From: Candidatus Baldrarchaeum yapensis
GTDB lineage: Archaea; Asgardarchaeota; Baldrarchaeia; Baldrarchaeales; Baldrarchaeaceae
DNA length: 20,873 nt
Assembly: GCA_016840465.1 (NCBI GenBank)
Contig: JAEOSH010000043.1
Location: 1-20,873, forward strand
Direction: 5' to 3'
A program made the position numbers and the translations under genes. How positions within the stretch are numbered: the stretch's first letter is position 1; each line of letters begins with the position of its first letter. Shown here in pieces: positions 676-12,481 of this stretch. The notes under the pieces are model-generated. The model saw only the letters and a program-made list of their open reading frames with translations. It was not told the origin of the DNA and did no database searches.

Positions 676-1234
676 TCATGATCACCTCGTTTTTGTCTTC
701 AGATAGCGATAGTCTCCCCGAAGATATCAATCTGAGGAGTGCAACGAATGCCATCAGCGTGGACCATCGATCTCCCATTTTAACCACATTTTCTACGCTC
801 GCCCTCCCTCCTTGCTCCGTTAAAAGCGAAAGTACCAGTCTAGACGCTCTTTTCAAGATATCCTCAAACCTTACGATACTTATCTCGACGTGTGGAGCCT
901 CAGAGCCTAACTCTATATGCTCGGTGAGCTCTTCTGCTTCTAAGCACCTCCTCTTCTCCGATAGCGATTTTAATCTCTCGAATGCTCTTCTGAGATCGTC
1001 GATTCCAATAAAGGGGAACATCAATGGAACTCCGGCTATTTTGATCTCTGGTTGTTCTCCCTCAAGGTTCATTAGTATGAGGTTTGCTATTTCGCGGATC
1101 TCCCTCTCGATAAGATCCAAAATTCTTGCAATTATCCTTAATGCTTCCCTTAGATCCATATTGTCGATCTCGGCAAGCACCTTTGAAATTAGCAAATTTA
1201 CGTCGCCACCGCTGCCCATCATAAGGGTCACCAT
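668..1234 (-). CDS. scpA: ScpA-like kleisin (short); likely start ATG 1222
   Basis: DVNLLISKVLAEIDNMDLREALRIIARIL resembles the ScpA N-terminal helical region, IGIDDLRRAF resembles the 'vTLdeLi.AL' motif, and C-terminal FVALLRLISSGRLSL resembles the kleisin cap WH (FLALLeL…G.v.l). It lies directly after SMC, with GGTGA 6 nt before ATG 1222. Confidence 0.75.
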   Translation of the reverse strand: MVTLMMGSGGDVNLLISKVLAEIDNMDLREALRIIARILDLIEREIREIANLILMNLEGEQPEIKIAGVPLMFPFIGIDDLRRAFERLKSLSEKRRCLEAEELTEHIELGSEAPHVEISIVRFEDILKRASRLVLSLLTEQGGRASVENVVKMGDRWSTLMAFVALLRLISSGRLSLSEDKNEVIMIE

Positions 1235-4200
1235 TCCAGCTCTATTATCCTGCTAACGCCGCGGTCTTTCTGCAACACCACTCCGTAAATCTTATCGGCG
1301 AACAATCCGATGTCGGCGTGCTTATCCGGCACAAATACCAGCACCTGCCTTCCCTTTGAATTCTTACTGAGAATTTTCGCCGCAACGGTGCTATGCCTGA
1401 TGTCTAAGAAGATGACCGGCTCGTCGTAGGCAAATATGCGGCTGTGCGATCTCCTCTGAAGTGCACATATGAACGCTATTGCTATGATTGTCTGTTGACC
1501 CTTACTGAAGGTCTTGATGGCACGTTCAACGCCATCGCCTGTTTTTGCCCTCATCACCAAGCCCAGTTCCTCGAAGCTACCATCCAATGTGGCGCTGCAC
1601 CGTATGTCGATGTTGTTCTCCTCAAGCACGCTATTAACTTCCCTGATAATTGAATCCACCTCCTTCCTCAACTCCTCCAAGTACTTATCTTTCAACTTCT
1701 CCATGAGTTGGCTGACGGCACTTATTTTCCTCTCTACCTCGTTTATTCGCCTAGAAATTTCCTTTCGACTCTCCTGTAGCTGCTTTACCCTGTCCAGCAC
1801 ACTCTCATCGACTTCTCCCAGTTCTTCCAGTTCCTGCAATACCACCTCCTTGCGCGCCCTTATTTCTGCGATAGAGCGCACCTTCGAAGGGCGTTCGACT
1901 CCCATAATTTTAACCGAACTGTAGAGATTACCGAGTTCCTCCTCGATACGCCTAATCTCTTCCTCCAACGTCTCCATCTTCCTACTCACGTCCTGATATC
2001 TCTCATCGAATCTGCCCAACTCCTCACGAAGTTTCTCCTTGCGCTCTTTCAGTTTCGATATCTCCCTATCCACGCCCTCGATACTCGATTTGATTTCTTT
2101 TTTCTTCCCCTCCAGCAGTTCGACATTCTTCAGGCTTTTTCTCAAGTCGGCATCTGCCCTTTCCAACTCTTCCTCCAATTCGACCTTCACTGATGCCTTC
2201 TCGTTAATTCTGGTATCAATGCCTACGAGCATTTTCTCCAACTCTGTTATCAGATTTTTGCCCCTCTCAACCATCCTGTCCACTTTTTTCAACTCTCTAT
2301 CGTTCCTCTTCAACCCTTTCTCTATAGCGTCCAGCATGCCAATGAGTTTATCGTAATCTGCCGGTTTCCGCCCCTCTATTTCCTTTAACCCTGCGAGCGC
2401 CTCGTCAACTCTCCTCTTATACTCTTCTAACTCTTTCTTCAACCGCGATACTCTCTCCTTAGCATTTTCTATCTCCTCACGCAGACGAAGCTTGCGCTCG
2501 TGGAGTTCTCTCCATTTCGGGATCAGGTTGAGCAACTCTCTTATTCTTTCCAACTCTCTCCCATATCGCTCTACGTCATCCGATAATTGCTTACGCTTCT
2601 CCTCCAAGGTCTTCCGCCTATCTTCCAACTCTTCGAGCATCGCTTGGAGCCTTTTAACGCTGAGGAGACCGCGAGGTTCCCGCCTTGCCACCATTTTAAT
2701 GACGTAATTACGCCCCTCCACAACTTCGCCGTCCAGCGTGACGAATCTATAGTTGTACTTTCGGGAGAGTCTTATTGCACTATCTAGGTCTCTCACAACC
2801 ACAACTCTGCCGCAGATATCCCTTATCACGGGTCTCAGTTCCTCGGGAAACGTTATCAGGTCTTCGAGCCATCCCACGACTCCCTCCTCCCTTAGCTCCT
2901 CCTTCTCCTCAACCCGCTCGACCTTGGGCATGTAGATCGATACTCCGCGTGCGCGGTACTTCCTTCTTCTGAGGTCGTTTAAGATGTCGTTTTGTATCTC
3001 TTTTAATATCTTGAGGTCCATCTCGTCAAATACCACGAACGATAAGAGATCCCCGCCAAATATTATTTCGACGACCTCCGCGTACTCGTCCGGGACCTCC
3101 ATGTGCTTCATCAGCGGCCCCATAGCGTTAATGCCCCTTCTCTCAACTTCCTTTTCCAGCCTTGTGACCTCCTCCGGTATGCGTTTATCTCTGCTCAGAA
3201 GCTTCGCCCTCAACTCCCTAATCTCCCCGTCAAGGTTCGCCAGTTCCTTGGTGATCCTCCCCAGTTCTCCGATCAGTTCGCCCCTCTTCCTTTCGAGATC
3301 CTCCATTCTCCTCCTCAATTCTTCCTCGTTGTAATGCTCAATCTCCTCTCCAATTTCCTGAATCTCCTTGTTAACCTTCGCAAGTTCCTCATGTAGATCC
3401 CTGAGCCTGTCCATTTCGGCATCAACTTCTTTTTTCTTCTCCTCGAACGCCCTTCTCTCCGAATTATACAGTTCTCTTGCCTTAGACCATTCTCCTTCCC
3501 ACTCACGATAGTCCTTGAGTTTGTTCTCGACCTCCCTCTTCCTCTCATGTAGTTTCTCGATCTTCTGCTCGATCCTTGCTCTTCTATGTTTCAGTTCTGT
3601 GACCCTTTTCTCAACATTTCTGATGCATCCCTCGAGGACCCTTTTCTCTCGATCAAGTCTCTCCATCTCCGCTCTCAGGCGTTCAATCTTACCTATTATC
3701 TTGTCGTACTCCTTACGCTTCTCCTCGATCTTCATATTTTCGGCAGCAATTTCACCTTCCACCTTTCTCAGCACTTCCTCGAGCGACTTCTTCTTTTTCT
3801 CCAATTCCTCGATCCGTTTTCTGGTTTCAGAGATCATTGCGTTGATCCTCTCGATCTCATGGGCTAGATCTCCGCATTTCCCCTTCAATTCTTCCATTTT
3901 TCTTCTGCGTTCTGCAAGTTCTCGCTCCCTTTCAGATATCTCCGCCCATAGTTCCTCCGCTTCCAGTTTTTTAAGTTCCTCCTCCAGCTTTCTCTTTCTC
4001 TCCAATTTTTTGATCTGCGGACGTAGGTTCATCTCCTCCGAGTTGAGGGCCCTTAATTCCTCCTCCAGCAGTTTCTTTCTCTCCGACAGTTCCCTAATTT
4101 TATCAAGTTTATCTAGGATTTCCCTCCGATGCCCCGCAAGTCCTGTGATTTCCTCCACTGCCTCCCTCAGAGCAATGGGGTCGAGATCCTTGATCGCATC

Positions 4201-4605
4201 TATCTTCCCTTGAGGGCAGAATACGAACGGGTTGCCGGGGTCGGTCTCCAGTTCCCTGACTATCCTTCTGACGCTCTCGGCAGTTGTGAGTTTGCCGTTG
4301 ACGAAGTACTGTGGGGGCCTTCCCCTTACGACCCTTCTCCTAATGGTAATTGATTCCTGTCCATTGCTGAGCACCACCTCGACCCATGCCTCATTACAGC
4401 CGTGCCTGATGAAGTCCGACCAGCGCGGATACCTCTCATCCTTTTGGTTCGATCCCAAGACGAACCTTAGCGCCTGGAAGAGCGCGGTCTTCCCGGATCC
4501 GTTTTCCCCAACGAAAACTAAGAGTCCATCTTCGAGGTTTATCTCCTCATGTGCGTACGAGAGAAAATTATGGAGCGTTAACTTTACGATCCGCACCCCC
4601 TCCAC
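1228..4605 (-). CDS. smc: SMC-family ATPase with hinge; atypical head (start GTG 4605 or 4596)
   Basis: 1125 aa. Walker A GENGSGKT (aa 33-40), Q-loop FCPQGKI, two long coiled coils around an SMC hinge (GPLMKHMEV…FVTLDGEVVE), signature-like FSKGQ, Walker B IFAYDE and D-loop FLD. Confidence 0.95.
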   Translation of the reverse strand: MEGVRIVKLTLHNFLSYAHEEINLEDGLLVFVGENGSGKTALFQALRFVLGSNQKDERYPRWSDFIRHGCNEAWVEVVLSNGQESITIRRRVVRGRPPQYFVNGKLTTAESVRRIVRELETDPGNPFVFCPQGKIDAIKDLDPIALREAVEEITGLAGHRREILDKLDKIRELSERKKLLEEELRALNSEEMNLRPQIKKLERKRKLEEELKKLEAEELWAEISERERELAERRRKMEELKGKCGDLAHEIERINAMISETRKRIEELEKKKKSLEEVLRKVEGEIAAENMKIEEKRKEYDKIIGKIERLRAEMERLDREKRVLEGCIRNVEKRVTELKHRRARIEQKIEKLHERKREVENKLKDYREWEGEWSKARELYNSERRAFEEKKKEVDAEMDRLRDLHEELAKVNKEIQEIGEEIEHYNEEELRRRMEDLERKRGELIGELGRITKELANLDGEIRELRAKLLSRDKRIPEEVTRLEKEVERRGINAMGPLMKHMEVPDEYAEVVEIIFGGDLLSFVVFDEMDLKILKEIQNDILNDLRRRKYRARGVSIYMPKVERVEEKEELREEGVVGWLEDLITFPEELRPVIRDICGRVVVVRDLDSAIRLSRKYNYRFVTLDGEVVEGRNYVIKMVARREPRGLLSVKRLQAMLEELEDRRKTLEEKRKQLSDDVERYGRELERIRELLNLIPKWRELHERKLRLREEIENAKERVSRLKKELEEYKRRVDEALAGLKEIEGRKPADYDKLIGMLDAIEKGLKRNDRELKKVDRMVERGKNLITELEKMLVGIDTRINEKASVKVELEEELERADADLRKSLKNVELLEGKKKEIKSSIEGVDREISKLKERKEKLREELGRFDERYQDVSRKMETLEEEIRRIEEELGNLYSSVKIMGVERPSKVRSIAEIRARKEVVLQELEELGEVDESVLDRVKQLQESRKEISRRINEVERKISAVSQLMEKLKDKYLEELRKEVDSIIREVNSVLEENNIDIRCSATLDGSFEELGLVMRAKTGDGVERAIKTFSKGQQTIIAIAFICALQRRSHSRIFAYDEPVIFLDIRHSTVAAKILSKNSKGRQVLVFVPDKHADIGLFADKIYGVVLQKDRGVSRIIELEW

Positions 4606-5515
4606 CCCCTACCATGCTCCTTATCCTCTCAACAGCCTTCTTCGCTCTCATCAACCTGATGATCCTCCTCTCACGATCATCTAGCAGTATAAACGAGCAC
4701 TTAGCGAGAAGGATTTCCAGTTTCCTATCGAGGGGTTGCCCGATGTTGATCTTACGTATTAGCTTCTCGAACTCCTGCCCGTACTCGCTGATTGCCATCA
4801 TGTACATTTGATCCAGCATGTCGTCGGGAACCACGCTCTCCACAACCTTAGGCGCTGGCGGAAAGATTATCCTCTCGAGACAAAAGATAAAGTCCTCCGT
4901 CTTAACAACGTCCCTGTTGTTGCCGAACGCATAAGAAACCGCCATCTTGACGAGATTTATCAGGTCCGTCGCATAGAGTCCCTCCGTCATCTCTATTATC
5001 TTTCTCAGGTCGATATCGTACTTTACACCGTCGAGTAATACCCTCAGCGCCTCCCCCCTCTCACTTGGCCCCGGTTCATGCACTCTTAATACGAACTCGT
5101 TTATTGTTAGCGGGTTTTCCAATGGCGGGCTCAGCACCACTATTAAAAACTTCCCGTCGAAGGCCCTATTCTTAAGGAGATCCATCACGTGATCACAACT
5201 TGCCCACGTTAAAAGCACGACTTCCCTGAACTTAGAAGGTTCCATATGCTCGTTGGCCGATATTTCTGTTATATCTATGTTCATTTCGTTCAATACTGAT
5301 TTTATCGCTAAATCTATCATCGATCTGGGATCCGCATAAAGGATGACCCTAGATACCGGTTCCACTCTCAGGTTTTCCGTGAAAAACGTGCGGTTCCTCC
5401 ATGCAGTTATCAGAGCCTTCAATGCCTCTACTGTGTCCCTGCAACAGATGTTTGCGACGGCCTTGACCTTCTCCTCCCACGTGGCAACCCTTTTCTCTTT
5501 CTCACTCTCCGCCAT
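4568..5515 (-). CDS. Inactive classic-clade (PAN/Cdc48/FtsH-like) AAA+ domain protein with C-terminal helical extension
   Basis: LRVEPVSRVILYADPRSMIDLAIKSVLNEMN aligns to '[28 protein letters not shown]' with the P-loop destroyed. No hhhhDE Walker B (VVLLTW instead). EPGPSERGEALRVLL…DIDLRKIIEMTEGLYATDLINLVKMA…DVVKTEDFIFCLERI is a recognisable AAA lid. Confidence 0.7.
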   Translation of the reverse strand: MAESEKEKRVATWEEKVKAVANICCRDTVEALKALITAWRNRTFFTENLRVEPVSRVILYADPRSMIDLAIKSVLNEMNIDITEISANEHMEPSKFREVVLLTWASCDHVMDLLKNRAFDGKFLIVVLSPPLENPLTINEFVLRVHEPGPSERGEALRVLLDGVKYDIDLRKIIEMTEGLYATDLINLVKMAVSYAFGNNRDVVKTEDFIFCLERIIFPPAPKVVESVVPDDMLDQMYMMAISEYGQEFEKLIRKINIGQPLDRKLEILLAKCSFILLDDRERRIIRLMRAKKAVERIRSMVGGGGGADRKVNAP

Positions 5516-7283
5516 AGTATCCTCTCACCTCCTCTATGACCATCTTGGGGAGATCGTTTGCATCCTGCACGGGATAGATTTTTCCTCCCATTTGGAAGAA
5601 CGTTTTGAACTTTTTGCTCTGCAGATCCTCCTCCCTGCCGCCTATCAAGAACAGTACTATCTTGTGCCCCATTGACGCGATCTCCATTAGGCCCCTTAAT
5701 GCCTGCTTCCAGTTGTAGATCTCCGCATCGCTTATTATCAGAACCAACACCTGATCCCTCGCCTTTTGCACCAGCTCAATCAACTCCTCTATCGGAAGTT
5801 CCGTTCCTCCGCCCTGGTACGTCAGTAAGCAGTCCTCCACTTTCTTCCTGTCTCTGGTCCACTCACAAGTTATGGGCTCGTCCGAGAAGTTCAGCACCGC
5901 CATCCTGCAGTTTTTCCTCATTGCAAAATCCAAGGCAGCGAATGCGGACACTAGTGCCGCATCATACGGTCCCGATGGTCCGGCCGGGTTCCATAATTCC
6001 CAGAACATGCTACCTGAGCTATCTATCACTATAAGGAGGTCGGGAGGGGCACTTTTCTCACCATGCCTTTCGCTTTTCCTTTTTACCCATTTTCTGGTGG
6101 TAATGTTCGGAATGAGAACCGGGAATGTTTGAAGAGATTGCACGATGTCCAACTCCTCTATTGGGTCGCCGATACGCCACACCGTGGTGTATGCGGGCAA
6201 TGCGCTTCCCTCTCTTTTAACCCGCATTTTTATTTCGATCTTTGAGGCCGCTCTTGCGCGATACCAGAACCTTAAGAGGTCATGCCCCCTCAACATCGGA
6301 GACAGACCCAGTGAGGCAGAGGCGAACTTTCCAAAGTCTTGCCCTCGCTCTACAAACCGCCTCGCTATTTTTTCAAGGTCCTCCTCTGATAGTTCGCCCT
6401 TCCCCTCAGCGGCCTCCTTATCACGTATCTCCATGGGGTTTCCACGCATCAGGATAATAACATCTTTAGGAACTTCTGCAGGTGATCTTTCTTCTTCGGC
6501 ATCGGGCTTAGTGGCCATGGGGGACCCTGTTGACGACCCTCCGCAACCTGTGAGCATGGGTGCCGGCACTCCTAAACAGATGCCCTCACGGACTTCCTCC
6601 ATCAGCACGTCTCTTAGTATCTGTGCGACCCTGCGAGTCCTCTCGGGCCACGAGTTCTCGTCATCTATTCCATCCCTGACGGCATTTGCAAGTTCTCGCG
6701 CTATTCTGTCCTCCCTTTTTCCAATGTCTAGGCGAATCGGAAATCTAACACCCCACAGGTATTCATAGGTTCGGACGAGTATTTTGAATAGGGCACTCGG
6801 AGATCCGGTTACTCTAACCGCCTCTCTTATTATCACCTCGAGTGACCACAGCGTGTCATCCCGGAACATCTTAAACAGTTTTGTTTCGACCACGAGATCG
6901 GCAAACACGTTTACTGCGAAAACCGCGCGCATTGGGTCGAGTACAGATGCCGCCTCGGCGACCATGAACGAGGAATTAATTCTATCATATGGACAGTAGA
7001 TGTAATGTCCGATTTCATGCCTTGCCATACATCTGAAAAACCTGAGGAGCTCCGTTTCTCCAAGCTGGGGATGTCGAGCAACGTTCATATGAACCCGCCA
7101 ATCCTCCTCGCTTATGTAGAAGCCCGATGTTTTCATCTCGTCATATTCTATTTCCGGCTCGGGGATCGGTGGGTTGAGGAAGTCCGCGAGCGCGAGGTTA
7201 TACCCCTCCCTTGCGATATGCATAACTCTCTCCGGCGGAATCCCCCTCCCTCTGCGGAAGATTTTACCTAGCGCTTTCTCCAT
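5502..7283 (-). CDS. Zincin-like metallopeptidase (HExxH) fused to a VWA domain (MoxR partner, DUF2201-like architecture)
   Basis: HEIGH at aa 89-93 (7005-7019) followed by NVFADLVV. The C-terminal VWA has a complete MIDAS: LLIVIDSSGSM, GGGT, IISD. GGTGA RBS, 4 nt after the MoxR stop. Confidence 0.85.
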   Translation of the reverse strand: MEKALGKIFRRGRGIPPERVMHIAREGYNLALADFLNPPIPEPEIEYDEMKTSGFYISEEDWRVHMNVARHPQLGETELLRFFRCMARHEIGHYIYCPYDRINSSFMVAEAASVLDPMRAVFAVNVFADLVVETKLFKMFRDDTLWSLEVIIREAVRVTGSPSALFKILVRTYEYLWGVRFPIRLDIGKREDRIARELANAVRDGIDDENSWPERTRRVAQILRDVLMEEVREGICLGVPAPMLTGCGGSSTGSPMATKPDAEEERSPAEVPKDVIILMRGNPMEIRDKEAAEGKGELSEEDLEKIARRFVERGQDFGKFASASLGLSPMLRGHDLLRFWYRARAASKIEIKMRVKREGSALPAYTTVWRIGDPIEELDIVQSLQTFPVLIPNITTRKWVKRKSERHGEKSAPPDLLIVIDSSGSMFWELWNPAGPSGPYDAALVSAFAALDFAMRKNCRMAVLNFSDEPITCEWTRDRKKVEDCLLTYQGGGTELPIEELIELVQKARDQVLVLIISDAEIYNWKQALRGLMEIASMGHKIVLFLIGGREEDLQSKKFKTFFQMGGKIYPVQDANDLPKMVIEEVRGYYGGE

Positions 7284-7287
7284 GTGA

Positions 7288-8997
7288 TCACCCCGTCAGT
7301 ATCTTCAGGAGTTTTTCGGCATCAGGGCCCGATATCTCGAGATACACGGGGTCATCATCCTCGGTTCCCGTGACGCTGACGGAGATCGTCACCCATGGAG
7401 TCCTGACAAAGCAGTATCCGATTCTTTCGAATAATGGTTTCAGCGATTCGTAGATTCTCCTATCCGGCACTTTGGCGATTATCTTCGGTCCTAAGTTCCT
7501 CCACTCCTTGAATGTTATCCGCACCATCTCGCATGTTAGTTTGTGTATTTGCCGATCCACTCTATCCAGGAGCCTCTCCCTGTAGGGTATATCCACGTCA
7601 CTGCTGAGTTTCTCCCTTATTTTTGCGAGGTCGCTCACCTTACCTGCTGTTATCGCCTTCTCTATCTCCGTAACGAACTTCCTGTACTTAGGAGAGTTTA
7701 GTTGCTTCACCAGCGGTAAAATGTCCACCTTGACAACGATGTCGCTACGCGCCCACAGTTCGAGTTTCTGAATGTCTTCTTTCGTCCCCGTCCCGCGCTC
7801 AAACTTTTCTAGGATGTCATATGCTTCCATCCGCGCGATGAACCGGTCCTTCACCAACTTCATAATATGTCTCGTAAACTTGAGCGGGTCCCCATAAAAT
7901 GGATGCTCGCGGAGGTTCTTATCGGAATACTGCACACGATGCCATACTACAAATGGTGCAATCGCCTCCACAACCTCTATCGTCACCCTATCCAAGTTTA
8001 GAAGCCATGCCAATGCTTTCGCATATCTGCTGATGTCCTTCGCTGCTCTTACGCTCAATGGAGTCAGTATCTTGTTACAGGGACATTTATCCGTGTTGAA
8101 GTGGCAACCCTGACACAGCCCGGTGTCTGGTCTGAGAATTCGGGCGTTCTCCTTACTCACCCGTATGCATGCCTTGTATTCGGAAATTATGCTACTTATG
8201 AATCTGGCGGCCCTAGGGTCGAGTTCCATTCTCTCGACCATGCCCCATATCTGCATCAGTTCCTTCTCGGTCAGAATTGCGGGGATTTGGTAATATTCAT
8301 CGAAACCGTAAAGTTTCTCGTCTTGGGTTCCGAGGATCACCTGCATCTCGACAGAGGAGGGCATTGTCACGGGAACCGCGATGCCGAACCTGTCAAGGAA
8401 GGGCAACCCCATTTCAAAGGTTCCTACGTCCTGAGGGTTCAGCGTCGCGTACAGCACGAAGTTTTCGCAACGGTATACTTTGTCAAAGTACTTTACCTGT
8501 CCTTCCGCAAGCAAAGATAGGAGGATGTCTTGGGCGTATGGACTAAGTCTATTCACCTCGTCGACAATCTTCCAGAAGTCCGTAACGAATCTCCTCCACA
8601 CGACGTCCTCTACTCCCTCTTTTAGTAACTTTCCCGGCTTAAGAGTGGCGACCATCTTCTCCTCCGTTATGTACGGGTGCGCCCTTACGACCGCCTCCTC
8701 TATCTCCCTTAACGACTTTCCGGTAAGCATCCTCCCGAGAATCTTAACGAGGGTGGTTTTACCACCCCCATGTCCCCCATATAGCAGCATCGTCCCACGG
8801 GGGACCAGCGCGTTAATGACCGCGAGTGTGAGGATTAATGGCAATCGCTTGACGGAGTATCGGCCGCTTCGGCCGGACGGAACCTTCACTTCTAGGCGTT
8901 CGCCGTGAACAAATAGTCTATGCACTTCAACCGTGTTTATTACTTCCCAGACCTTTCGCCTGAGGCTGTCCTCGGAGGCGCGGGGCAACCCGCACAC
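7288..8997 (-). CDS. MoxR-like (helix-2-insert clade) AAA+ ATPase with N- and C-terminal extensions
   Basis: Walker A GGHGGGKTT, Walker B KIVDEVNR, sensor I ATLNP, Arg finger FLDRF, sensor II LSVRAAK, and lid end APFVVWHRV. Adjacent to a VWA gene, as is typical for MoxR. Confidence 0.9.
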   Translation of the reverse strand: MCGLPRASEDSLRRKVWEVINTVEVHRLFVHGERLEVKVPSGRSGRYSVKRLPLILTLAVINALVPRGTMLLYGGHGGGKTTLVKILGRMLTGKSLREIEEAVVRAHPYITEEKMVATLKPGKLLKEGVEDVVWRRFVTDFWKIVDEVNRLSPYAQDILLSLLAEGQVKYFDKVYRCENFVLYATLNPQDVGTFEMGLPFLDRFGIAVPVTMPSSVEMQVILGTQDEKLYGFDEYYQIPAILTEKELMQIWGMVERMELDPRAARFISSIISEYKACIRVSKENARILRPDTGLCQGCHFNTDKCPCNKILTPLSVRAAKDISRYAKALAWLLNLDRVTIEVVEAIAPFVVWHRVQYSDKNLREHPFYGDPLKFTRHIMKLVKDRFIARMEAYDILEKFERGTGTKEDIQKLELWARSDIVVKVDILPLVKQLNSPKYRKFVTEIEKAITAGKVSDLAKIREKLSSDVDIPYRERLLDRVDRQIHKLTCEMVRITFKEWRNLGPKIIAKVPDRRIYESLKPLFERIGYCFVRTPWVTISVSVTGTEDDDPVYLEISGPDAEKLLKILTG

Positions 8998-9232: not shown

Positions 9233-9811
9233 TCACCGACCCTCCGGTATCATACCATTCGCCCTTAATTCCTCATACACTCTTCTCAAAAGTTCTCGAA
9301 TCTTCCGGCGCTTCTTCATGCCTCCCATCATCTGTGCAACCTTTCTGATGCTCCCTATTACCGAGATCATCTCGAGTATACGTCTTTCCTGTTTTGTCAG
9401 TTCCAGATGCTCCAGTGCAAGCCTCGCGATGTAGTCCACCGGAATCTTGCCATAGTATAGGCTCTCGGGGTCTATCCCCTCCCCGTACTTCTCGATCACG
9501 TCGAACTCTATTATCGTGACGTTAGACTCCGGCGATACGTTGCCGTAGTGGTACTTCAGGCTCTCTATGAGCTCGTCCCTGCTCTTGAACCCGTCCTTGT
9601 GCGCGTCCTCATCGGTGAGATCCTTCACCTTCTTGTGTTCAACTCTCCTTACCCGGGCCTTCGCTATTATTTTGCCGCCACAGTGGATGAAGACCTCATC
9701 TCCCTCGCTCAGCCGGCGTATGGTTCCCAGCCTTATGGTCGTGCACTTTTTCCCCTTCAGGACCTTCTCACGGTACTGCCGCTTTAGTTCTATGTACTTC
9801 ATCCCCAGCAC
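9233..9811 (-). CDS. ASCH (PUA-like) domain protein with C-terminal HTH-like region; likely start ATG 9802
   Basis: KVLKGKKCTTIRLG…GDEVFI…LTDEDAHKDGF is the ASCH GxKxxTxR pattern. The tail LTKQERRILEMISVIGSIRKVAQMMG is HTH-like. Confidence 0.85.
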   Translation of the reverse strand: MLGMKYIELKRQYREKVLKGKKCTTIRLGTIRRLSEGDEVFIHCGGKIIAKARVRRVEHKKVKDLTDEDAHKDGFKSRDELIESLKYHYGNVSPESNVTIIEFDVIEKYGEGIDPESLYYGKIPVDYIARLALEHLELTKQERRILEMISVIGSIRKVAQMMGGMKKRRKIRELLRRVYEELRANGMIPEGR

Positions 9812-9981
9812 CGTGGCTTATGTTGTCCTGAAAATCAGGGTACGGATACCTAATAAGTGTACCACTGAGTGAAGGATTTGCGAATCTATTTCTGTAGTAT
9901 CGGAGTCAGTTTAGCGGCGTTATGAGCAAAACTAAAGGGGAATTGCTAGCTATTGCTTAATGCAATAAGTGGCAAGAGTAG

Positions 9982-10389
9982 TTATCGAGTTGTTTGACCG
10001 ATTTCTAACTCTATGAGCTTTAATCCGTATCTTTTAAGCCGTTCAAAATGCTTCTTATTTCTTGCCCAGAGAAACGCGCCCCTCTGGATGGCCGTAGCGG
10101 CAATTATGGCGTCACGTGGATCCAGGGCCTCCCCCCGGTTCATCAGATCGGCCTCTATTTTTGCCGCGCAGTCGGCGGCCTCTATTGATATCGGCAAAAC
10201 CCCGAAGTATTTCTTGAGCAGATTCTTAAGGTAGCCTTGATCGGTCTTATACGCTCCCGTCATAAATTCGAAGTAAACCACAGCGCAGATCTTCAGATCG
10301 TACTTTTCCATGAGGCTAATAATTTTCTTAGGGTCGCCCTTCTCCAGCAGATCTATCAGCACGTCCGTATCTAGATGTACCTCGTTCAT
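9982..10389 (-). CDS. vapC: PIN-domain (VapC-family) toxin
   Basis: VHLDTDVLID, YFEFMTG, DPRDAIIAATA and RNKKHFER. Acidic PIN residues are present, though the usual 'T.D/N' position reads ARN. Confidence 0.9.
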   Translation of the reverse strand: MNEVHLDTDVLIDLLEKGDPKKIISLMEKYDLKICAVVYFEFMTGAYKTDQGYLKNLLKKYFGVLPISIEAADCAAKIEADLMNRGEALDPRDAIIAATAIQRGAFLWARNKKHFERLKRYGLKLIELEIGQTTR

Positions 10390-10613
10390 TTCATCCTCCT
10401 CATCTGCTCTACTACTTTACGTATTTCCTCCAGACAACCCTCCGCTCGTACCTTCTCCAGATCAGAAATCAACTCCAGAGCCTTCATTCTCCTCCAGTGG
10501 TTTAACAGGAACTCTATCACCTCATTGAAACTCTGAAGTCCAAGTTCATTTTTCAGATTCTCCAGCCTCTCGAGAAGCGCTCTGTGCAGAGTGATCGTTG
10601 TGTATTCCCTCAT
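10386..10613 (-). CDS. vapB: VapB-family RHH-type antitoxin
   Basis: 75 aa. YTTITLHRALLERLENLKNELGLQSFNEVIEFLL is the archaeal RHH antitoxin pattern, and it has an ATGA overlap with the PIN gene. Confidence 0.85.
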   Translation of the reverse strand: MREYTTITLHRALLERLENLKNELGLQSFNEVIEFLLNHWRRMKALELISDLEKVRAEGCLEEIRKVVEQMRRMK

Positions 10614-10770
10614 TCCGATCCGCCCCTATGAAATAGCATTTTCCAATATATCATATCAAGTATACATTAATGCATGAATACATTGTCATGAAATTTTGTT
10701 GCAGGGGCCCACGAATTAAATTGTACCAAGGTGCAATTGCATTATGGTGAGGATCTCAGAGGGATAGTAG

Positions 10771-11910
10771 ATGAAAATACTAGTTCTCGGTTGTGGGAAT
10801 ATAGGATCCGCGATTGTAATGGATCTTACGAGGTCGATACCAAGTGCGGAAGTTGCGGTTGCCGATAACGATCTGAGGAAAATCACTCGATTAGCTAATC
10901 GATTGAAGGGGAAAATCCGACATGTACTCATTGATGCATCGAATCAGGAGAAACTTACACGGCTGTTTTCGAAATTTGATGTGGTGGTCGGTGCACTCCC
11001 TGGGAGATTGGGGTTTAATGCAATGCATGCTGCCATAAACGCGGGAACAAATATGGTGGACGTGTCATATACGCCGGAAAATCCTCTATTGTTGAATGAA
11101 GATGCTTTAAACGCGGGAGTCACAATAGTGCCGGACTGCGGTTTTGCGCCGGGATTAACAAATCTGATAGTCGGATTCTGCAGCTGCATATTCGACCAAA
11201 TCGATACTGTGAAGATCTTCGTTGGGGGATTGCCTCAAAGGCCCGTACCTCCCCTCGGATATGTTATTACATGGTCAGTGGAGGACCTGATAGAGGAGTA
11301 TACGAGGGACGCGAGGATAATAGTGGACGGCGAGATAGTAAGGGTCAGGGCTTTAGATGGAATAGAAACCGTGGAAATTCCACATGTAGGTACCCTCGAG
11401 GCGTTTTACACGGATGGGCTGCGCACTCTCCTTTACACGATGAGAAACGTGAGAAACATGTACGAGAAGACATTAAGATTCCCGGGACACGCTGAGAAGA
11501 TAAAACTGCTGAGAGATCTCGGGTTCTTCGATGATGACAAAGTAGAGGTTGAAGGGGTGGAGATACCCATCAACGTCTTCACCGCGAGGGTTTTAGAGAG
11601 GAGGTTGAGGGTGTCCGAGGTCAGGGACATGGTTGTAATGAGGGTTGAGGTTCTGGGGTACCATCAAGGAACGAAGAGAGTCATGATCTTCGACCTAGTG
11701 GATCGATTTGATGAGCGAGAGGAGATCACGGCGATGGCACGTGTCACGGGATACATGGCATCGACGGTTACGAAGATTCTGGCATCCGGGGAAATAAAAC
11801 AAAAGGGAATTGTTCCACCCGAAATTCTTGGGAGGGATACGGCAATATTTAAGAAAATTATAGAGGATCTCGGAAAGAGGAGAATTGTCATAAGAATCTC
11901 GGAAAAATAA
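10771..11910 (+). CDS. Saccharopine dehydrogenase / L-lysine 6-dehydrogenase family oxidoreductase
   Basis: Rossmann KILVLGCGNIG, DCGFAPGLTN, VGGLPQRP..PLGY.ITWS…LIEEY, LEAFYTDGLRTL, TLRFPGH and MARVTGY. Confidence 0.88.
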   Translation: MKILVLGCGNIGSAIVMDLTRSIPSAEVAVADNDLRKITRLANRLKGKIRHVLIDASNQEKLTRLFSKFDVVVGALPGRLGFNAMHAAINAGTNMVDVSYTPENPLLLNEDALNAGVTIVPDCGFAPGLTNLIVGFCSCIFDQIDTVKIFVGGLPQRPVPPLGYVITWSVEDLIEEYTRDARIIVDGEIVRVRALDGIETVEIPHVGTLEAFYTDGLRTLLYTMRNVRNMYEKTLRFPGHAEKIKLLRDLGFFDDDKVEVEGVEIPINVFTARVLERRLRVSEVRDMVVMRVEVLGYHQGTKRVMIFDLVDRFDEREEITAMARVTGYMASTVTKILASGEIKQKGIVPPEILGRDTAIFKKIIEDLGKRRIVIRISEK

Positions 11911-12013: not shown

Positions 12014-12481
12014 ATGCGTAGGATTGAGGTTTCCGAGGGAATTTATGAGATCCTTTTGGAAATCGCCAGAATAAGGGGCAAAAGTATAGAAGAGATCATT
12101 GTTGAATCCGTTATTGAAGACCTAGATCCCAGAACAAGGATCGAGGTATACTTAAAACTCCATGAGAAGTTTCTGCGAGAGGCGGAGGATTTCTACGCCA
12201 AGGGCGATCTTGTACAGGCTGGTGAGAAGTACTGGGGCGCTGCAACGGCCCTCATCAATGCAATTGGTGAGAAAAGGGGATGGAAACATTACAGCCACAG
12301 GGACTATGCCGAAATTATAGAAAGATTATCCGAGGAGTTAAAAGAACCGCTGGGAAGGCTCTTTGCAAGCGTTGAGAGATTACACGCGAATTATTACCAT
12401 AATTTCCTGACAAAAACGAACTTCGAAGCGCATAGGGAGGATGCGCTTAAACTCATCACGAAACTCAAAGAACTCGTATGA
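12014..12481 (+). CDS. PaREP1-family (HEPN-like) protein with N-terminal RHH-like segment
   Basis: FLREAEDFYAKGDLVQAGEKYWGAA…KHYSHRDY…ERLHANYYH is the PaREP1 pattern (QA.EK.w.A…LH.nfY). Confidence 0.88.
   Translation: MRRIEVSEGIYEILLEIARIRGKSIEEIIVESVIEDLDPRTRIEVYLKLHEKFLREAEDFYAKGDLVQAGEKYWGAATALINAIGEKRGWKHYSHRDYAEIIERLSEELKEPLGRLFASVERLHANYYHNFLTKTNFEAHREDALKLITKLKELV

Follow-up and report, generated by a model that had tools for sequence, protein, structure and literature searches.

The window analysed here, a stretch of 20,873 nucleotides from Candidatus Baldrarchaeum yapensis, carries on its reverse strand an SMC gene with an open frame of 1125 codons and a GTG start, together with three genes that accompany it in related loci (Table 1). 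In database gene calls the protein begins three codons later (P0002, 1122 aa). The protein has the complete SMC layout of two head halves separated by long arms and a hinge, and Pfam matches SMC_N across residues 6–1113 (3.2e-29) and SMC_hinge (1.3e-13); with TIGR02169 it reaches 276 bits, compared with a cut-off of 729 bits. The protein retains the Walker A motif, the Q-loop Gln, the Ser and Gly of the ABC signature, the Asp-Glu pair of Walker B and the D-loop Asp, all of which are invariant in the family to which it belongs, termed family F below, and its N-terminal head half is without the GFKSFG-type insertions of canonical SMC. No signs of decay were seen, the frame being intact and the terminal branch (0.64) being no longer than that of its Jord sisters (0.51 plus ~0.2). 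The product is therefore probably a functional SMC ATPase of full length from a non-canonical lineage, a reading in which we place considerable confidence.

Table 1. Features of the SMC locus; positions are those of the window.
Feature	Position	Strand	Basis or remark
SMC gene (P0001), 1125 aa	1228..4605	(-)	Open frame
N-terminal head half, aa 1-172, with NFLSY, Walker A and Q-loop	4090..4605	(-)	Family alignments A1, A4
Walker A GENGSGKT, aa 33-40	4486..4509	(-)	G33, G38, K39 invariant in family F
FIRHGCNEAWVEVVL, N-head, aa 65-79	4369-4413	(-)	Located in SMC protein
NPFVFCPQGKI, aa 125-135, then LDPIALREAVE	4201-4233	(-)	Located in SMC protein
Q-loop Gln132, in CPQGKI	4210..4212	(-)	Invariant in 25-sequence family alignment
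Hinge domain, aa 488-643	2677..3144	(-)	Pfam SMC_hinge; family hinge alignment
Hinge end FVTLDGEVVEGRN, aa 621-633	2707..2745	(-)	Without following Gly-Gly
ABC signature F-S-K-G-Q, aa 1033-1037	1495..1509	(-)	Lys1035, codon AAG, 1501-1503
Walker B IFAYDE, aa 1057-1062	1420..1437	(-)	D1061, E1062 invariant in family F
D-loop F-L-D, aa 1066-1068	1402..1410	(-)	D1068 invariant in family F
H-loop strand QVLVFVPDKH, aa 1087-1096	1318..1347	(-)	Pro1093 (1327-1329) in place of switch His
Kleisin-like gene, 188 aa	668..1234	(-)	Overlaps SMC stop
Kite-like gene, 145 aa, tandem winged helix	238..675	(-)	Conserved downstream in family loci
Upstream gene, 315 aa, AAA lid match only	4568..5515	(-)	Overlaps SMC start

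Family F occurs widely among Asgard archaea and is not of the canonical Smc-ScpAB type. In an exhaustive search its members, ~30 clusters at 50% identity, score from 525 down to ~180 bits, below which lies a plateau of generic SMCs at no more than 160 bits. All named members are Asgard (Jord-, Thor-, Prometh/Loki-, Hel-, Hod- and Odinarchaeota), and none was found outside Asgard archaea in the searches made. A profile match above 600 bits occurs in at least 117 of 251 Asgard genomes, canonical SMCs reaching at most 362 bits with the same profile. Most Thor- and Loki-type genomes carry the family, and in Thor- and Jord-type genomes it is found together with a canonical SMC of ~1200 aa. Neither a canonical SMC nor ScpA, ScpB or a short Smc5/6-like gene was found in the present genome, which is 96% complete, and the protein described here is its sole SMC.

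Three regions of the protein depart from the canonical pattern. In the H-loop, Pro1093 is invariant in the family F alignment (n = 25), and HMMER and MAFFT alignments give this loop two residues more than in canonical SMC, Smc1-4 and Rad50. A (T/S)-P at this position is found in family F, in the related group G2, in the short family S and in all sampled Smc5 and Smc6, and is absent from the canonical SMC, Smc1-4 and Rad50 sequences compared. The hinge retains GP and TLDG, has lost the trailing G...GG and contains a private insertion of ~9 aa (NDILNDLRR...). TLDG without Gly-Gly is a trait of family F, whereas canonical Asgard SMC hinges retain TLEGDxxExxGxxxGG; the Gly-Gly is also absent from three alignable Smc6 hinges. 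A hinge HMM scores 136.7 bits on the protein, similar to canonical hinges, and 88–148 bits on family F, compared with at most 20 bits on Smc5/6 hinges, so that by profile score the family F hinge is otherwise of canonical type despite the lost Gly-Gly. In the ABC signature, S1034 and G1036 are invariant in family F (n = 25), while position 1035 is Gly in 20 of the 25 sequences, Glu in four and Lys in this protein only, the nearest orthologues of which read SGGE. The four Glu-bearing sequences are Hod-type members with SEGQ, G2 has SSG, and SEG, SDG, SSG and STG occur in other SMC lineages. A single-base error is unlikely, since the AAG codon is at least two base changes away from every Gly codon and the same protein is predicted on a 22-kb contig that was assembled separately from a public sequencing run, possibly of the same sample. 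On these alignments, Lys1035 is a change private to this protein, at a site that has varied repeatedly within family F and other SMC families, and its most likely effect is to tune ATP-dependent head engagement without abolishing it.

An earlier note on this DNA had quoted these motifs, and all of them are present where it placed them, including the hinge end without its glycine motif, where the Gly-Gly is indeed missing after FVTLDGEVVEGRN. Its statement that eukaryotic Smc5 and Smc6 carry Pro for His at the H-switch agrees with every sampled database sequence, and the Smc5 head motifs that it named correspond to YVK(R/H)G...I(K/E)I(S/E) and NL(C/T)QFLPQDRV in database Smc5. S-K-G, the conservation of which it had proposed to check, is not a lineage feature, the orthologues carrying SGG[EQ] and the Lys being private. 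The note had reasoned that a head firmly within ordinary archaeal Smc, with orthologues carrying LSGG and TH, would make these substitutions private or a sign of decay; the signature half of this expectation agrees with what was found, but at the H-loop all family F orthologues have Pro and never His.

The SMC gene lies in a conserved operon that, in 11 family F loci, comprises a pseudo-AAA gene, the SMC, a small kleisin and a tandem winged-helix kite. In all 11 loci the SMC is immediately preceded by a homologue of the 315-aa gene, and in ten of them it is immediately followed by the kleisin-like gene (alignment A7), the remaining locus (L017) ending too soon. No Pfam family matched the kleisin-like protein, the C-terminal winged helix of which weakly resembles that of ScpA. 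In the predicted complex its N-terminal helices lie on the SMC neck and its C-terminal winged helix on the cap, with a score of 0.79 compared with 0.12 for the best of three controls; 58 of 80 solved complexes, but only two of 110 mismatched pairs, attain the mark used for such scores. At least 84% of contacts agree between prediction runs and the partner pLDDT is at least 65, although the pass may reflect likeness to known structures, because SMC head–kleisin complexes have already been solved. The 188-aa protein is thus predicted to be a kleisin that binds the SMC neck and cap. The AlphaFold model of the kite-like protein (pLDDT 84) retrieves ScpB, MAGE-A3, MukE, JetB, Nse1-Nse3 and ESCRT-II with Foldseek, all of them tandem winged-helix proteins. 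No significant sequence similarity to Nse4, Nse1/3, ScpA or ScpB was seen for either the kleisin or the kite; DUF4194, which we take to be the JetB/MksE kite family, is matched weakly by two of ten family kites (E = 0.0018). A MoxR AAA+ gene and a VWA gene stand beside the operon here, in Thor loci and in G2 relatives outside Asgard.

The placement of the head was examined in maximum-likelihood trees of the head domain (IQ-TREE, LG+C20+F+G4 PMSF; support is given as ultrafast bootstrap/SH-aLRT). Family F with G2 forms a clade in three trees (99/96, 96/87 and 99/98), within which the present protein is sister to Jordarchaeales proteins (100/99), and all bacterial and archaeal SMC with Smc1-4 form a separate clade without family F (96/93, 98/98 and 100/97). 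Joining family F to the canonical clade and Rad50 to Smc5/6 is not rejected (AU p = 0.54, 0.30). Family F appears to branch between canonical SMC/Smc1-4 and the Smc5/6 group, the AU tests being compatible with a place on either side of the root. In profile comparisons on PDB chains, the family F C-head profile scores Smc6 18–27 bits above the canonical Asgard profile and is lower than the latter on every Smc1-4 and prokaryotic SMC, the N-head profile lies ~42 bits higher for Smc5, and the full-length profile gives its top scores to Smc2 and Smc3, not Smc5/6. The distinct SMC lineage that the earlier note had proposed is upheld by the head tree that it had called for, the head lying outside ordinary archaeal Smc (98/98, 100/97; AU p = 0.018 against a clade with Asgard canonical SMC). 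Its suggestion of a relationship to Smc5/6 survives in part: the H-loop Pro is common to both and the Gly-Gly loss is shared with the alignable Smc6 hinges, but family S is closer to Smc5/6 (99/94).

That the protein is a true archaeal orthologue of eukaryotic Smc5/6, its closest sister and direct prokaryotic counterpart, is unlikely. The shared H-loop (T/S)-P speaks for it, as do a head tree without family S, in which family F plus G2 is sister to Smc5 plus Smc6 (96/78), a hinge tree that groups family F with Smc6 (SH-aLRT 94), the Smc6 clusters among the feature-based Atlas neighbours of the protein and a G2 profile that ranks plant Smc5 (93 bits) above Smc2/3 (~76–81 bits). However, once the ~640-aa hinge-less family S is included it takes the sister place and family F falls deeper, a parabasalid Smc6 query scores 91–113 bits with S-type proteins but no more than 50 bits with SMC_hinge-bearing prokaryotic SMCs, the family F hinge is far from the Smc5/6 range, and the AU tests leave the root side of family F unfixed. 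It is highly improbable, and largely refuted, that the protein is instead a fast-evolved canonical Smc with odd motifs arising from the private decay of one lineage. It is the only SMC of its genome, its hinge is canonical-type with TLDG, its signature Lys is private and an all-Asgard SMC clade is not rejected when hinge columns are included and Smc5/6 sequences are left out (AU p = 0.168); yet orthologues of 24–35% identity share Thor- and Jord-type genomes with a canonical SMC, family F is a well supported clade outside every canonical SMC, the head dataset rejects a clade restricted to Asgard SMCs, the branch is of ordinary length and the operon has its own conserved partners instead of ScpA/ScpB.

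Two further readings concern function. A catalytically degenerate head, which would bind ATP, barely hydrolyse it and serve as a static clamp or scaffold, seems quite unlikely. Two ATPase motifs are off consensus together, and non-Gly residues at this signature position are found in catalytically degenerate, non-hydrolytic sites of some ABC proteins; by this analogy the ATPase may be weakened. Against degeneracy, the Pro is found throughout the family and in Smc5/6, which are active ATPases, the remaining motifs are intact, and Glu, Ser, Asp or Thr occupies the same signature position in other apparently sole SMCs. A defence or episome-restriction system of the Wadjet/Lamassu type, or one acting on extrachromosomal DNA as Smc5/6 does, in place of a housekeeping organizer, is very unlikely. 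Eukaryotic Smc5/6 restricts episomal DNA, and the weak DUF4194 matches and the MoxR AAA+ plus VWA neighbours would suit such a role; however, PADLOC matches JetC and LmuB only over parts of the head or coiled coil and finds nothing for the partners, the operon is without a nuclease partner, the protein is the only SMC here, and the family tree follows named Asgard lineages while most Thor- and Loki-type genomes carry the gene, which resembles vertical inheritance and not patchy defence islands.

For the functional, non-canonical SMC ATPase that we favour, two copies would dimerize through the hinge, and the heads would engage around ATP sandwiched between Walker A on one head and the partner head's signature. 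The kleisin, carrying a kite dimer, would link one SMC at its neck to the other at its cap, and the resulting SMC–kleisin–kite ring would entrap or extrude DNA. Because this is the only SMC complex in the genome, it presumably performs general chromosome organization. We infer ATPase activity, dimerization and DNA entrapment for family F members from their sequences.

SMC-type ATPases with a kleisin and a kite are also known in MukBEF, Wadjet JetABC(D) and Lamassu LmuB, and some family kites weakly match DUF4194, but the present system has no MukB-type hinge or nuclease subunit. With the short archaeal family S (~625–680 aa), family F shares an ENFMSY-type N-terminus, an SGGE-type signature (as family F consensus), I-T-P at the H-loop and a position outside canonical SMC; family S has short arms and no hinge, whereas family F is full-length with a hinge, and the query used retrieved no S-type gene from this genome or from 251 Asgard genomes. 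The protein resembles canonical Smc-ScpAB (TIGR02169/TIGR02168) in architecture, length, TLDG hinge fold, homodimer-type single gene and kleisin and tandem winged-helix kite partners, and its full-length profile similarity is highest to the canonical Smc type and Smc2/3; it differs in its score well below the cut-off, the absence of GFKSF and of the hinge G...GG, the H-loop Pro with two extra residues, partners that do not match ScpA or ScpB and its place outside the canonical clade. Like eukaryotic Smc5/6, family F has (T/S)-P replacing the H-loop His, an NF(L/M)(S/T)(Y/F/H) N-terminus, a compact N-head free of the canonical insertions, and kleisin and kite partners with no HEAT (hawk) subunits, and like Smc6 it has a hinge end without Gly-Gly. 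Unlike the Smc5/6 heterodimer, it is presumably a homodimer, since there is a single SMC gene; the hinge of the protein is canonical-type (137 bits), PQG replaces PQD in the Q-loop and SKG replaces SGGE in the signature, and no counterparts of Nse2, Nse5 or Nse6 were recognized. SMC5/6-related SMC–kleisin–kite complexes have been described in TACK and Asgard archaea (Yoshinaga & Inagaki, 2021, PMC8665677; van Hooff et al., 10.1101/2024.01.07.573240). They resemble family F in being a second, non-canonical SMC encoded alongside a kleisin and a kite in a separate operon, often beside the canonical complex and sometimes the sole one kept, and in branching off canonical SMC towards Smc5/6; in the trees presented here, however, family F is not the closest relative of Smc5/6. 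We infer that family F is the clade of these two surveys, although it may instead be the extra Asgard-only SMC complex mentioned in the van Hooff et al. preprint. The text consulted does not discuss the Pro of the H-loop, the missing hinge Gly-Gly, the pseudo-AAA gene upstream or S-K-G. The protein is thus probably a member of a second, non-canonical SMC lineage known from earlier surveys, and its signature Lys is private to it.

The window SMC is encoded by an open frame of 1125 codons, and a separate assembly of a public sequencing run, possibly of the same sample, contains a contig with the identical protein. Pfam places SMC_N over amino acids 6–1113, covering both termini, and SMC_hinge (E = 1.3e-13) in the middle, at amino acids 495–613; the hinge scores 136.7 bits on the hinge HMM and lies ~315 and ~340 residues from the two halves of the head. 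The ABC head is split, with Walker A and the Q-loop at the N-terminus and the signature, Walker B and the D-loop at the C-terminus, and GENGSGKT, Q132, S1034/G1036, D1061–E1062 and D1068 are all present and invariant across family F, the non-canonical Asgard lineage that holds this SMC. Every string quoted in the earlier note for the head, signature, H-loop and hinge was recovered, which confirms that observation (see the table). The TIGR02169 equivalog of canonical (Smc–ScpAB-type) proteins gives 276.3 bits, against a curated cut-off of 729.4 and 770–940 bits for canonical Asgard SMCs. Rad50 models reach at most 114 bits against cut-offs of at least 700, and an SMC hinge is present with no zinc hook in its place; the PADLOC matches to JetC and LmuB are partial, extending over no more than the head or the coiled coil, and the partner proteins match none of JetA, JetB and JetD. 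Because SMC_N, SMC_hinge and the motifs are intact, yet the TIGR02169, PADLOC and Rad50 scores are low, the protein is, as judged from its sequence, a full-length hinge-bearing SMC, though not a standard one. It shows no sign of decay: no stop interrupts the frame, no gene of the operon is missing, and its terminal branch (0.64) is similar in length to those of its Jordarchaeales sisters.

Features of the window SMC and its surroundings, and of the other loci named in the text
Feature	Positions	Strand	Remark
SMC gene	1228-4605	-	window
FIRHGCNEAWVEVVL	4369-4413	-	N-head string of the earlier note
NPFVFCPQGKI	4201-4233	-	N-head, Q-loop region
FVTLDGEVVEGRN	2707-2745	-	hinge end
FSKGQ	1495-1509	-	signature, aa 1033-1037
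QVLVFVPDKH	1318-1347	-	H-loop strand
Upstream pseudo-AAA gene	4568-5515	-	window; homologues in L010-L018, L029, L030
MoxR-type AAA+ and VWA genes	5502-8997	-	window
MoxR-type AAA+ and VWA genes	L029:2471-4168	-	family F locus
MoxR-type AAA+ and VWA genes	L030:1196-4654	-	family F locus
MoxR/VWA genes	L053:9519-13339		G2 locus
MoxR/VWA genes	L054:1-2381, 9554-11359		G2 locus
ASCH-domain gene	9233-9811	-	window
PIN-domain gene	9982-10389	-	window
PaREP1-family gene	12014-12481	+	window
Rad50/SbcC-like gene	L002:958-3447		G000 contig C12
Rad50/SbcC-like gene	L037		contig C46
G2 SMC-like gene	L053:5001-8339
G2 SMC-like gene	L054:5001-8468
SMC-like gene, His retained	L050:380-3595		genome G033

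An exhaustive search of 1.84 billion representatives showed a step in the scores: ~30 clusters range from 525 to ~180 bits, and beneath them the generic SMCs level off at or below 160 bits. The closest relative of the window SMC has 35% identity, and all members of family F named at source are Asgard (Jordarchaeales, Thor-, Prometh/Loki-, Hel-, Hod- and Odinarchaeota); RLI60442.1 and RLI48923.1 are earlier database entries for Thorarchaeota members. Among 251 genomes of the phylum, at least 117 match the family profile above 600 bits, where canonical SMCs reach at most 362, and 107 contain a canonical SMC above the TIGR02169 cut-off. A peptide pattern derived from the family alignment was too generic on genome contigs and recovered at least two family F loci. 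Thor- and Jord-type genomes carry family F and a canonical SMC together, and family F is therefore a paralogue and not a fast-evolving orthologue. In the window genome (96% complete) family F was found alone: a search for a canonical SMC or a short Smc5/6-like gene returned neither, and there was no PF02616 (ScpA) match and no PF04079 (ScpB) match over cut-off, the operon neighbours likewise lacking a ScpA or ScpB match. The assemblies searched of a sister family within the same order have a canonical SMC and no family F. The window genome also contains two Rad50/SbcC-like genes (830 and 916 amino acids).

Two further SMC types were encountered in these genomes. Genomes of a Loki-type family (f9; L038–L041 in genomes G040, G011, G031 and G021) carry a ~1480-residue SMC that has a long branch and heads of the canonical GFKSF type; TIGR02169 matches at E <= 1e-120 occur in only 8 of 61 f9 genomes, and family F profile matches at E <= 1e-60 in 56 of 61, a tally that may include a few canonical-level matches. 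Jordarchaeales possess a third SMC (L048, G020 contig C4; G073 contig C25) of 1156–1183 residues that is canonical-like, although its 657–672 bits on TIGR02169 fall short of the cut-off; its hinge is degenerate (41 bits).

Comparison of 25 family F sequences separates the traits of the lineage from the changes private to the window SMC. The proline at the H-loop (Pro1093; V-P in the window SMC) is invariant across all 25, and the loop is two residues longer than in canonical SMCs, Smc1–4 and Rad50. Family F hinges retain GP and TLDG, and the subsequent G...GG is never present; the window hinge reads TLDGEVVEGRNYVIKM, without the Gly-Gly, so that the canonical G-x(5,6)-G-x3-GG after TL(D/E)G is missing, and it carries a private insertion of ~9 residues. 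The signature is SGG[EQ] in 20 of the 25, the nearest Jordarchaeales orthologues among them, SEGQ in four members that form a clade, the sole Hodarchaeota-named sequence among them, and SKGQ in the window SMC only. The lysine codon is AAG, at least two changes away from every glycine codon. Several other SMC lineages carry Glu, Asp, Ser or Thr at this position; given these and the alignment, the lysine is a change private to the window SMC, at a site that varies again and again. Of the two substitutions that the earlier note had proposed to follow in orthologues, the proline thus proved to be a family character, and the S-K-G did not extend beyond the window SMC. A large cluster of SMCs of 1165–1171 residues (P0018, P0019, P0021, P0025, P0035 and others), three members of which are labelled only '[bacterium]' at source, has the signature LSEGE; as these appear to be ordinary SMCs, the first glycine of SGG is replaceable.

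The affinity of family F was examined using eukaryotic Smc5, Smc6 and Smc1–4 proteins from the databases. What the earlier note stated about Smc5/6 was borne out: T-P or S-P follows the H-loop strand in 7/7 Smc5 and 8/8 Smc6 sequences sampled, and Smc5 shows YVK(R/H)G and NL(C/T)QFLPQDRV. The proline is common to family F, its hinge-less relatives (G2), the ~640-residue hinge-less archaeal Smc5/6-like ATPases (family S) and Smc5/6, and is absent elsewhere. A maximum-likelihood head tree (323 columns, LG+C20+F+G4 PMSF, careful search, Rad50 root) built without family S recovered canonical SMC with Smc1–4 (98/98, ultrafast bootstrap/SH-aLRT), a clade that excludes the window SMC, Smc5 with Smc6 (100/100), F with G2 (96/87) and the latter two groups together (96/78). 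When six family S proteins, from searches that returned eukaryotic Smc proteins, were added, the window SMC again fell outside the canonical clade (100/97), family S became the sister of Smc5/6 (99/94), F+G2 lay deeper, and Rad50 plus canonical SMC were split from F, G2, X, S and Smc5/6 (96/84).

A clade of family F with the Asgard canonical SMCs, in which it would be a divergent offshoot of the ordinary type, is rejected on the head dataset (AU p = 0.018) and is not rejected on the earlier head-plus-hinge dataset without Smc5/6 (p = 0.168). A tree that joins family F to the canonical clade and Rad50 to Smc5/6 is as good as the best one (AU p = 0.54), and the corresponding alternative is likewise not rejected with family S included (AU p = 0.30). 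Full-length profile searches of the PDB put Smc2 and Smc3 at the top, above Smc5/6; since the hinge and arms of Smc5/6 evolve fast and lower their scores, kinship was judged from differential head profiles and not from this ranking. Relative to a canonical Asgard profile, the family F C-head profile raises PDB Smc6 chains by 18–27 bits and lowers every Smc1–4 and prokaryotic SMC; the N-head profile raises Smc5 by ~42 bits, yet also Rad50 by 20–35 bits. In a hinge-only tree (quick search, long branches), family F groups with the three alignable Smc6 hinges (SH-aLRT 94), which also lack the Gly-Gly. The differential head profiles, the hinge tree and the shared H-loop proline are three independent hints towards Smc5/6. 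The canonical type of the family F hinge and the full-length scores, highest for Smc2 and Smc3, speak against a close relationship. We read family F as an SMC lineage of its own that branches deeply, intermediate between canonical SMC and the Smc5/6 group; it probably belongs to the Smc5/6 side, with the position of the root weak, and is not the closest archaeal relative of Smc5/6. Of the suggestion in the earlier note of an Smc5/6-related or otherwise distinct lineage, the second half is supported; the first half is favoured by the trees, the alternative rooting not being rejected.

Several hinge-less or unusual relatives were observed alongside. The archaeal ATPases of ~625–680 residues (P0515–P0518, P0521, P0526, P0346, P0351, P0356, P0357, P0371) show ENFMSY, TQSGGER, VDEYD(I/V)HMDP and QYIVITPSQ and form the well-supported sister of eukaryotic Smc5+Smc6 mentioned for the head tree. 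An SMC-like protein of 1060–1071 residues (locus L050 and P0373) begins like Smc6 (INFMCY), has SSGEK as its signature and keeps the histidine (TTTHR); it falls between family F and S+Smc5/6 with weak support; phmmer with the 1071-residue L050 protein did not single out Smc5/6. G2 (L053, L054; P0224, P0011, also P0158) is a sister or offshoot of family F with the signature SSG[EQ] and an H-loop that reads I-P or V-P; it lacks the Q-loop Gln, and a hinge could not be recognised in it. Its gene order is the same (upstream gene, SMC-like gene, two small genes), and a MoxR-type AAA_5 gene comes next. Neither G2-type nor S-type proteins were found in the 251 Asgard genomes, in searches that had no positive control and show little, and G2 is therefore probably from another phylum.

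The gene neighbourhood of family F is conserved. A homologue of the upstream pseudo-AAA gene directly precedes the SMC gene in 11/11 loci; its product has 271–438 residues and an AAA-lid match only, and is best conserved in the C-terminal ~85 residues. A gene for 182–221 residues (188 in the window) follows the SMC in 10/11 loci, and one for 152–180 residues (145 in the window) comes next wherever the locus reaches far enough. The model of the 145-residue protein is a tandem winged helix (pLDDT 84) for which Foldseek returns ScpB, MAGE-A3, MukE, JetB, Nse1–Nse3 and ESCRT-II; the model thus points to the kite class, the subclasses being indistinguishable from the about equal fold matches to ScpB, MAGE-A3, MukE and Nse1–Nse3. 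The 188-residue protein matches no Pfam family, and its model is confident for the C-terminal winged helix only, which weakly resembles that of ScpA: Foldseek gave nothing at E <= 0.001, with ScpA C-terminal winged helices at ranks 2, 5, 15 and 19. Neither the kite nor the kleisin profile had a significant match among PDB sequences, the best kleisin hint being the ScpA C-terminal domain (E = 0.98), and Pfam scans of all kite and kleisin family members revealed no ScpA, ScpB, Nse1, MAGE or Nse4, with a weak DUF4194 match in 2/10 kites.

Prediction of a complex between the SMC head (amino acids 1–215 and 925–1125) and the 188-residue protein gave a score of 0.79, the best of three controls giving 0.12; the mark set for this score is reached by 58/80 solved complexes and 2/110 mismatched pairs. 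Contact agreement between runs was at least 84% and the partner pLDDT at least 65. The predicted contacts place the N-terminal helices of the partner on the neck (SMC amino acids 159–190 and 942–978) and its winged helix on the cap (amino acids 1094–1125). The prediction supports binding of the 188-residue protein to the SMC head as a kleisin; since the geometry is that of a textbook kleisin, the pass may reflect likeness to solved SMC–kleisin complexes. MoxR-type AAA+ and VWA genes adjoin the SMC module: in the window they share its orientation, in Thor-type loci they diverge from it, and in the G2 loci outside Asgard they lie downstream, so the association recurs across distant relatives. 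The PIN-domain, PaREP1-family and ASCH-domain genes near the operon appear to be ordinary accessory genes of archaea.

Intact ATP-binding and hydrolysis motifs, a hinge with long arms, conserved kleisin and kite genes and the failure to find a second SMC in the window genome are the features on which a mechanism can be proposed. The window SMC would homodimerise at its hinge and its heads would engage in an ATP-dependent manner, while the kleisin would bridge neck and cap and close a ring that may entrap or extrude DNA, giving the complex a general chromosome-organising role in this organism. The H-loop histidine usually contacts the γ-phosphate, and the signature serine contacts ATP in trans. 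With proline throughout family F, the usual histidine contact is absent, as in Smc5/6. The private lysine is adjacent to the signature serine, and its positive charge might come to lie at the interface of the engaged heads. A bolder reading, which we consider improbable, would make family F an ancient SMC type in its own right, the third beside condensin-type SMCs and Smc5/6 and standing between the two, that has fully replaced the canonical complex here. In the window SMC the private signature lysine might then reach the γ-phosphate of the ATP on the partner head in trans, partly substituting for the missing H-loop histidine; if true, this would be an SMC ATPase cycle with a lysine-finger-like element. 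Reverting the lysine (K1035G) would be a simple way to probe head engagement by mutation. The window genome, in which family F is the only SMC found, is a natural setting for asking whether a complex of this kind suffices for all chromosome organisation.

No known organisms are closer to eukaryotes than the Asgard archaea, which gives their SMCs a bearing on the origin of the eukaryotic SMC complex set; the window SMC is a deeply divergent addition to the non-canonical Asgard lineage. Yoshinaga & Inagaki (2021; PMC8665677) divide archaeal SMCs into canonical and 'SMC5/6-related' types, the latter found mostly in TACK and also in Asgard, often beside the canonical type and sometimes alone. According to van Hooff et al. 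(bioRxiv 10.1101/2024.01.07.573240), each of the two types has its own SMC–kleisin–kite operon, and in Asgard alone the entire complex was duplicated once more. Family F fits this picture and may correspond either to the Asgard SMC5/6-related clade of these studies or to the extra Asgard complex. The published picture is unchanged and the value of the present analysis is thus incremental; its three new points are modest, namely that an H-loop proline and a hinge without Gly-Gly characterise the family, that S-K-G is private to one member and that a genome can have family F only. Canonical Asgard SMCs keep TLEGDxxExxGxxxGG in the hinge. Family F hinges are of the canonical type, with 88–148 bits on the hinge HMM versus at most 20 bits for Smc5/6, and the window hinge, canonical by both Pfam and HMM, has only the Gly-Gly loss in common with the three alignable Smc6 hinges; two Smc5/6-like traits, the H-loop proline and this loss, can thus occur with an otherwise canonical-type hinge.
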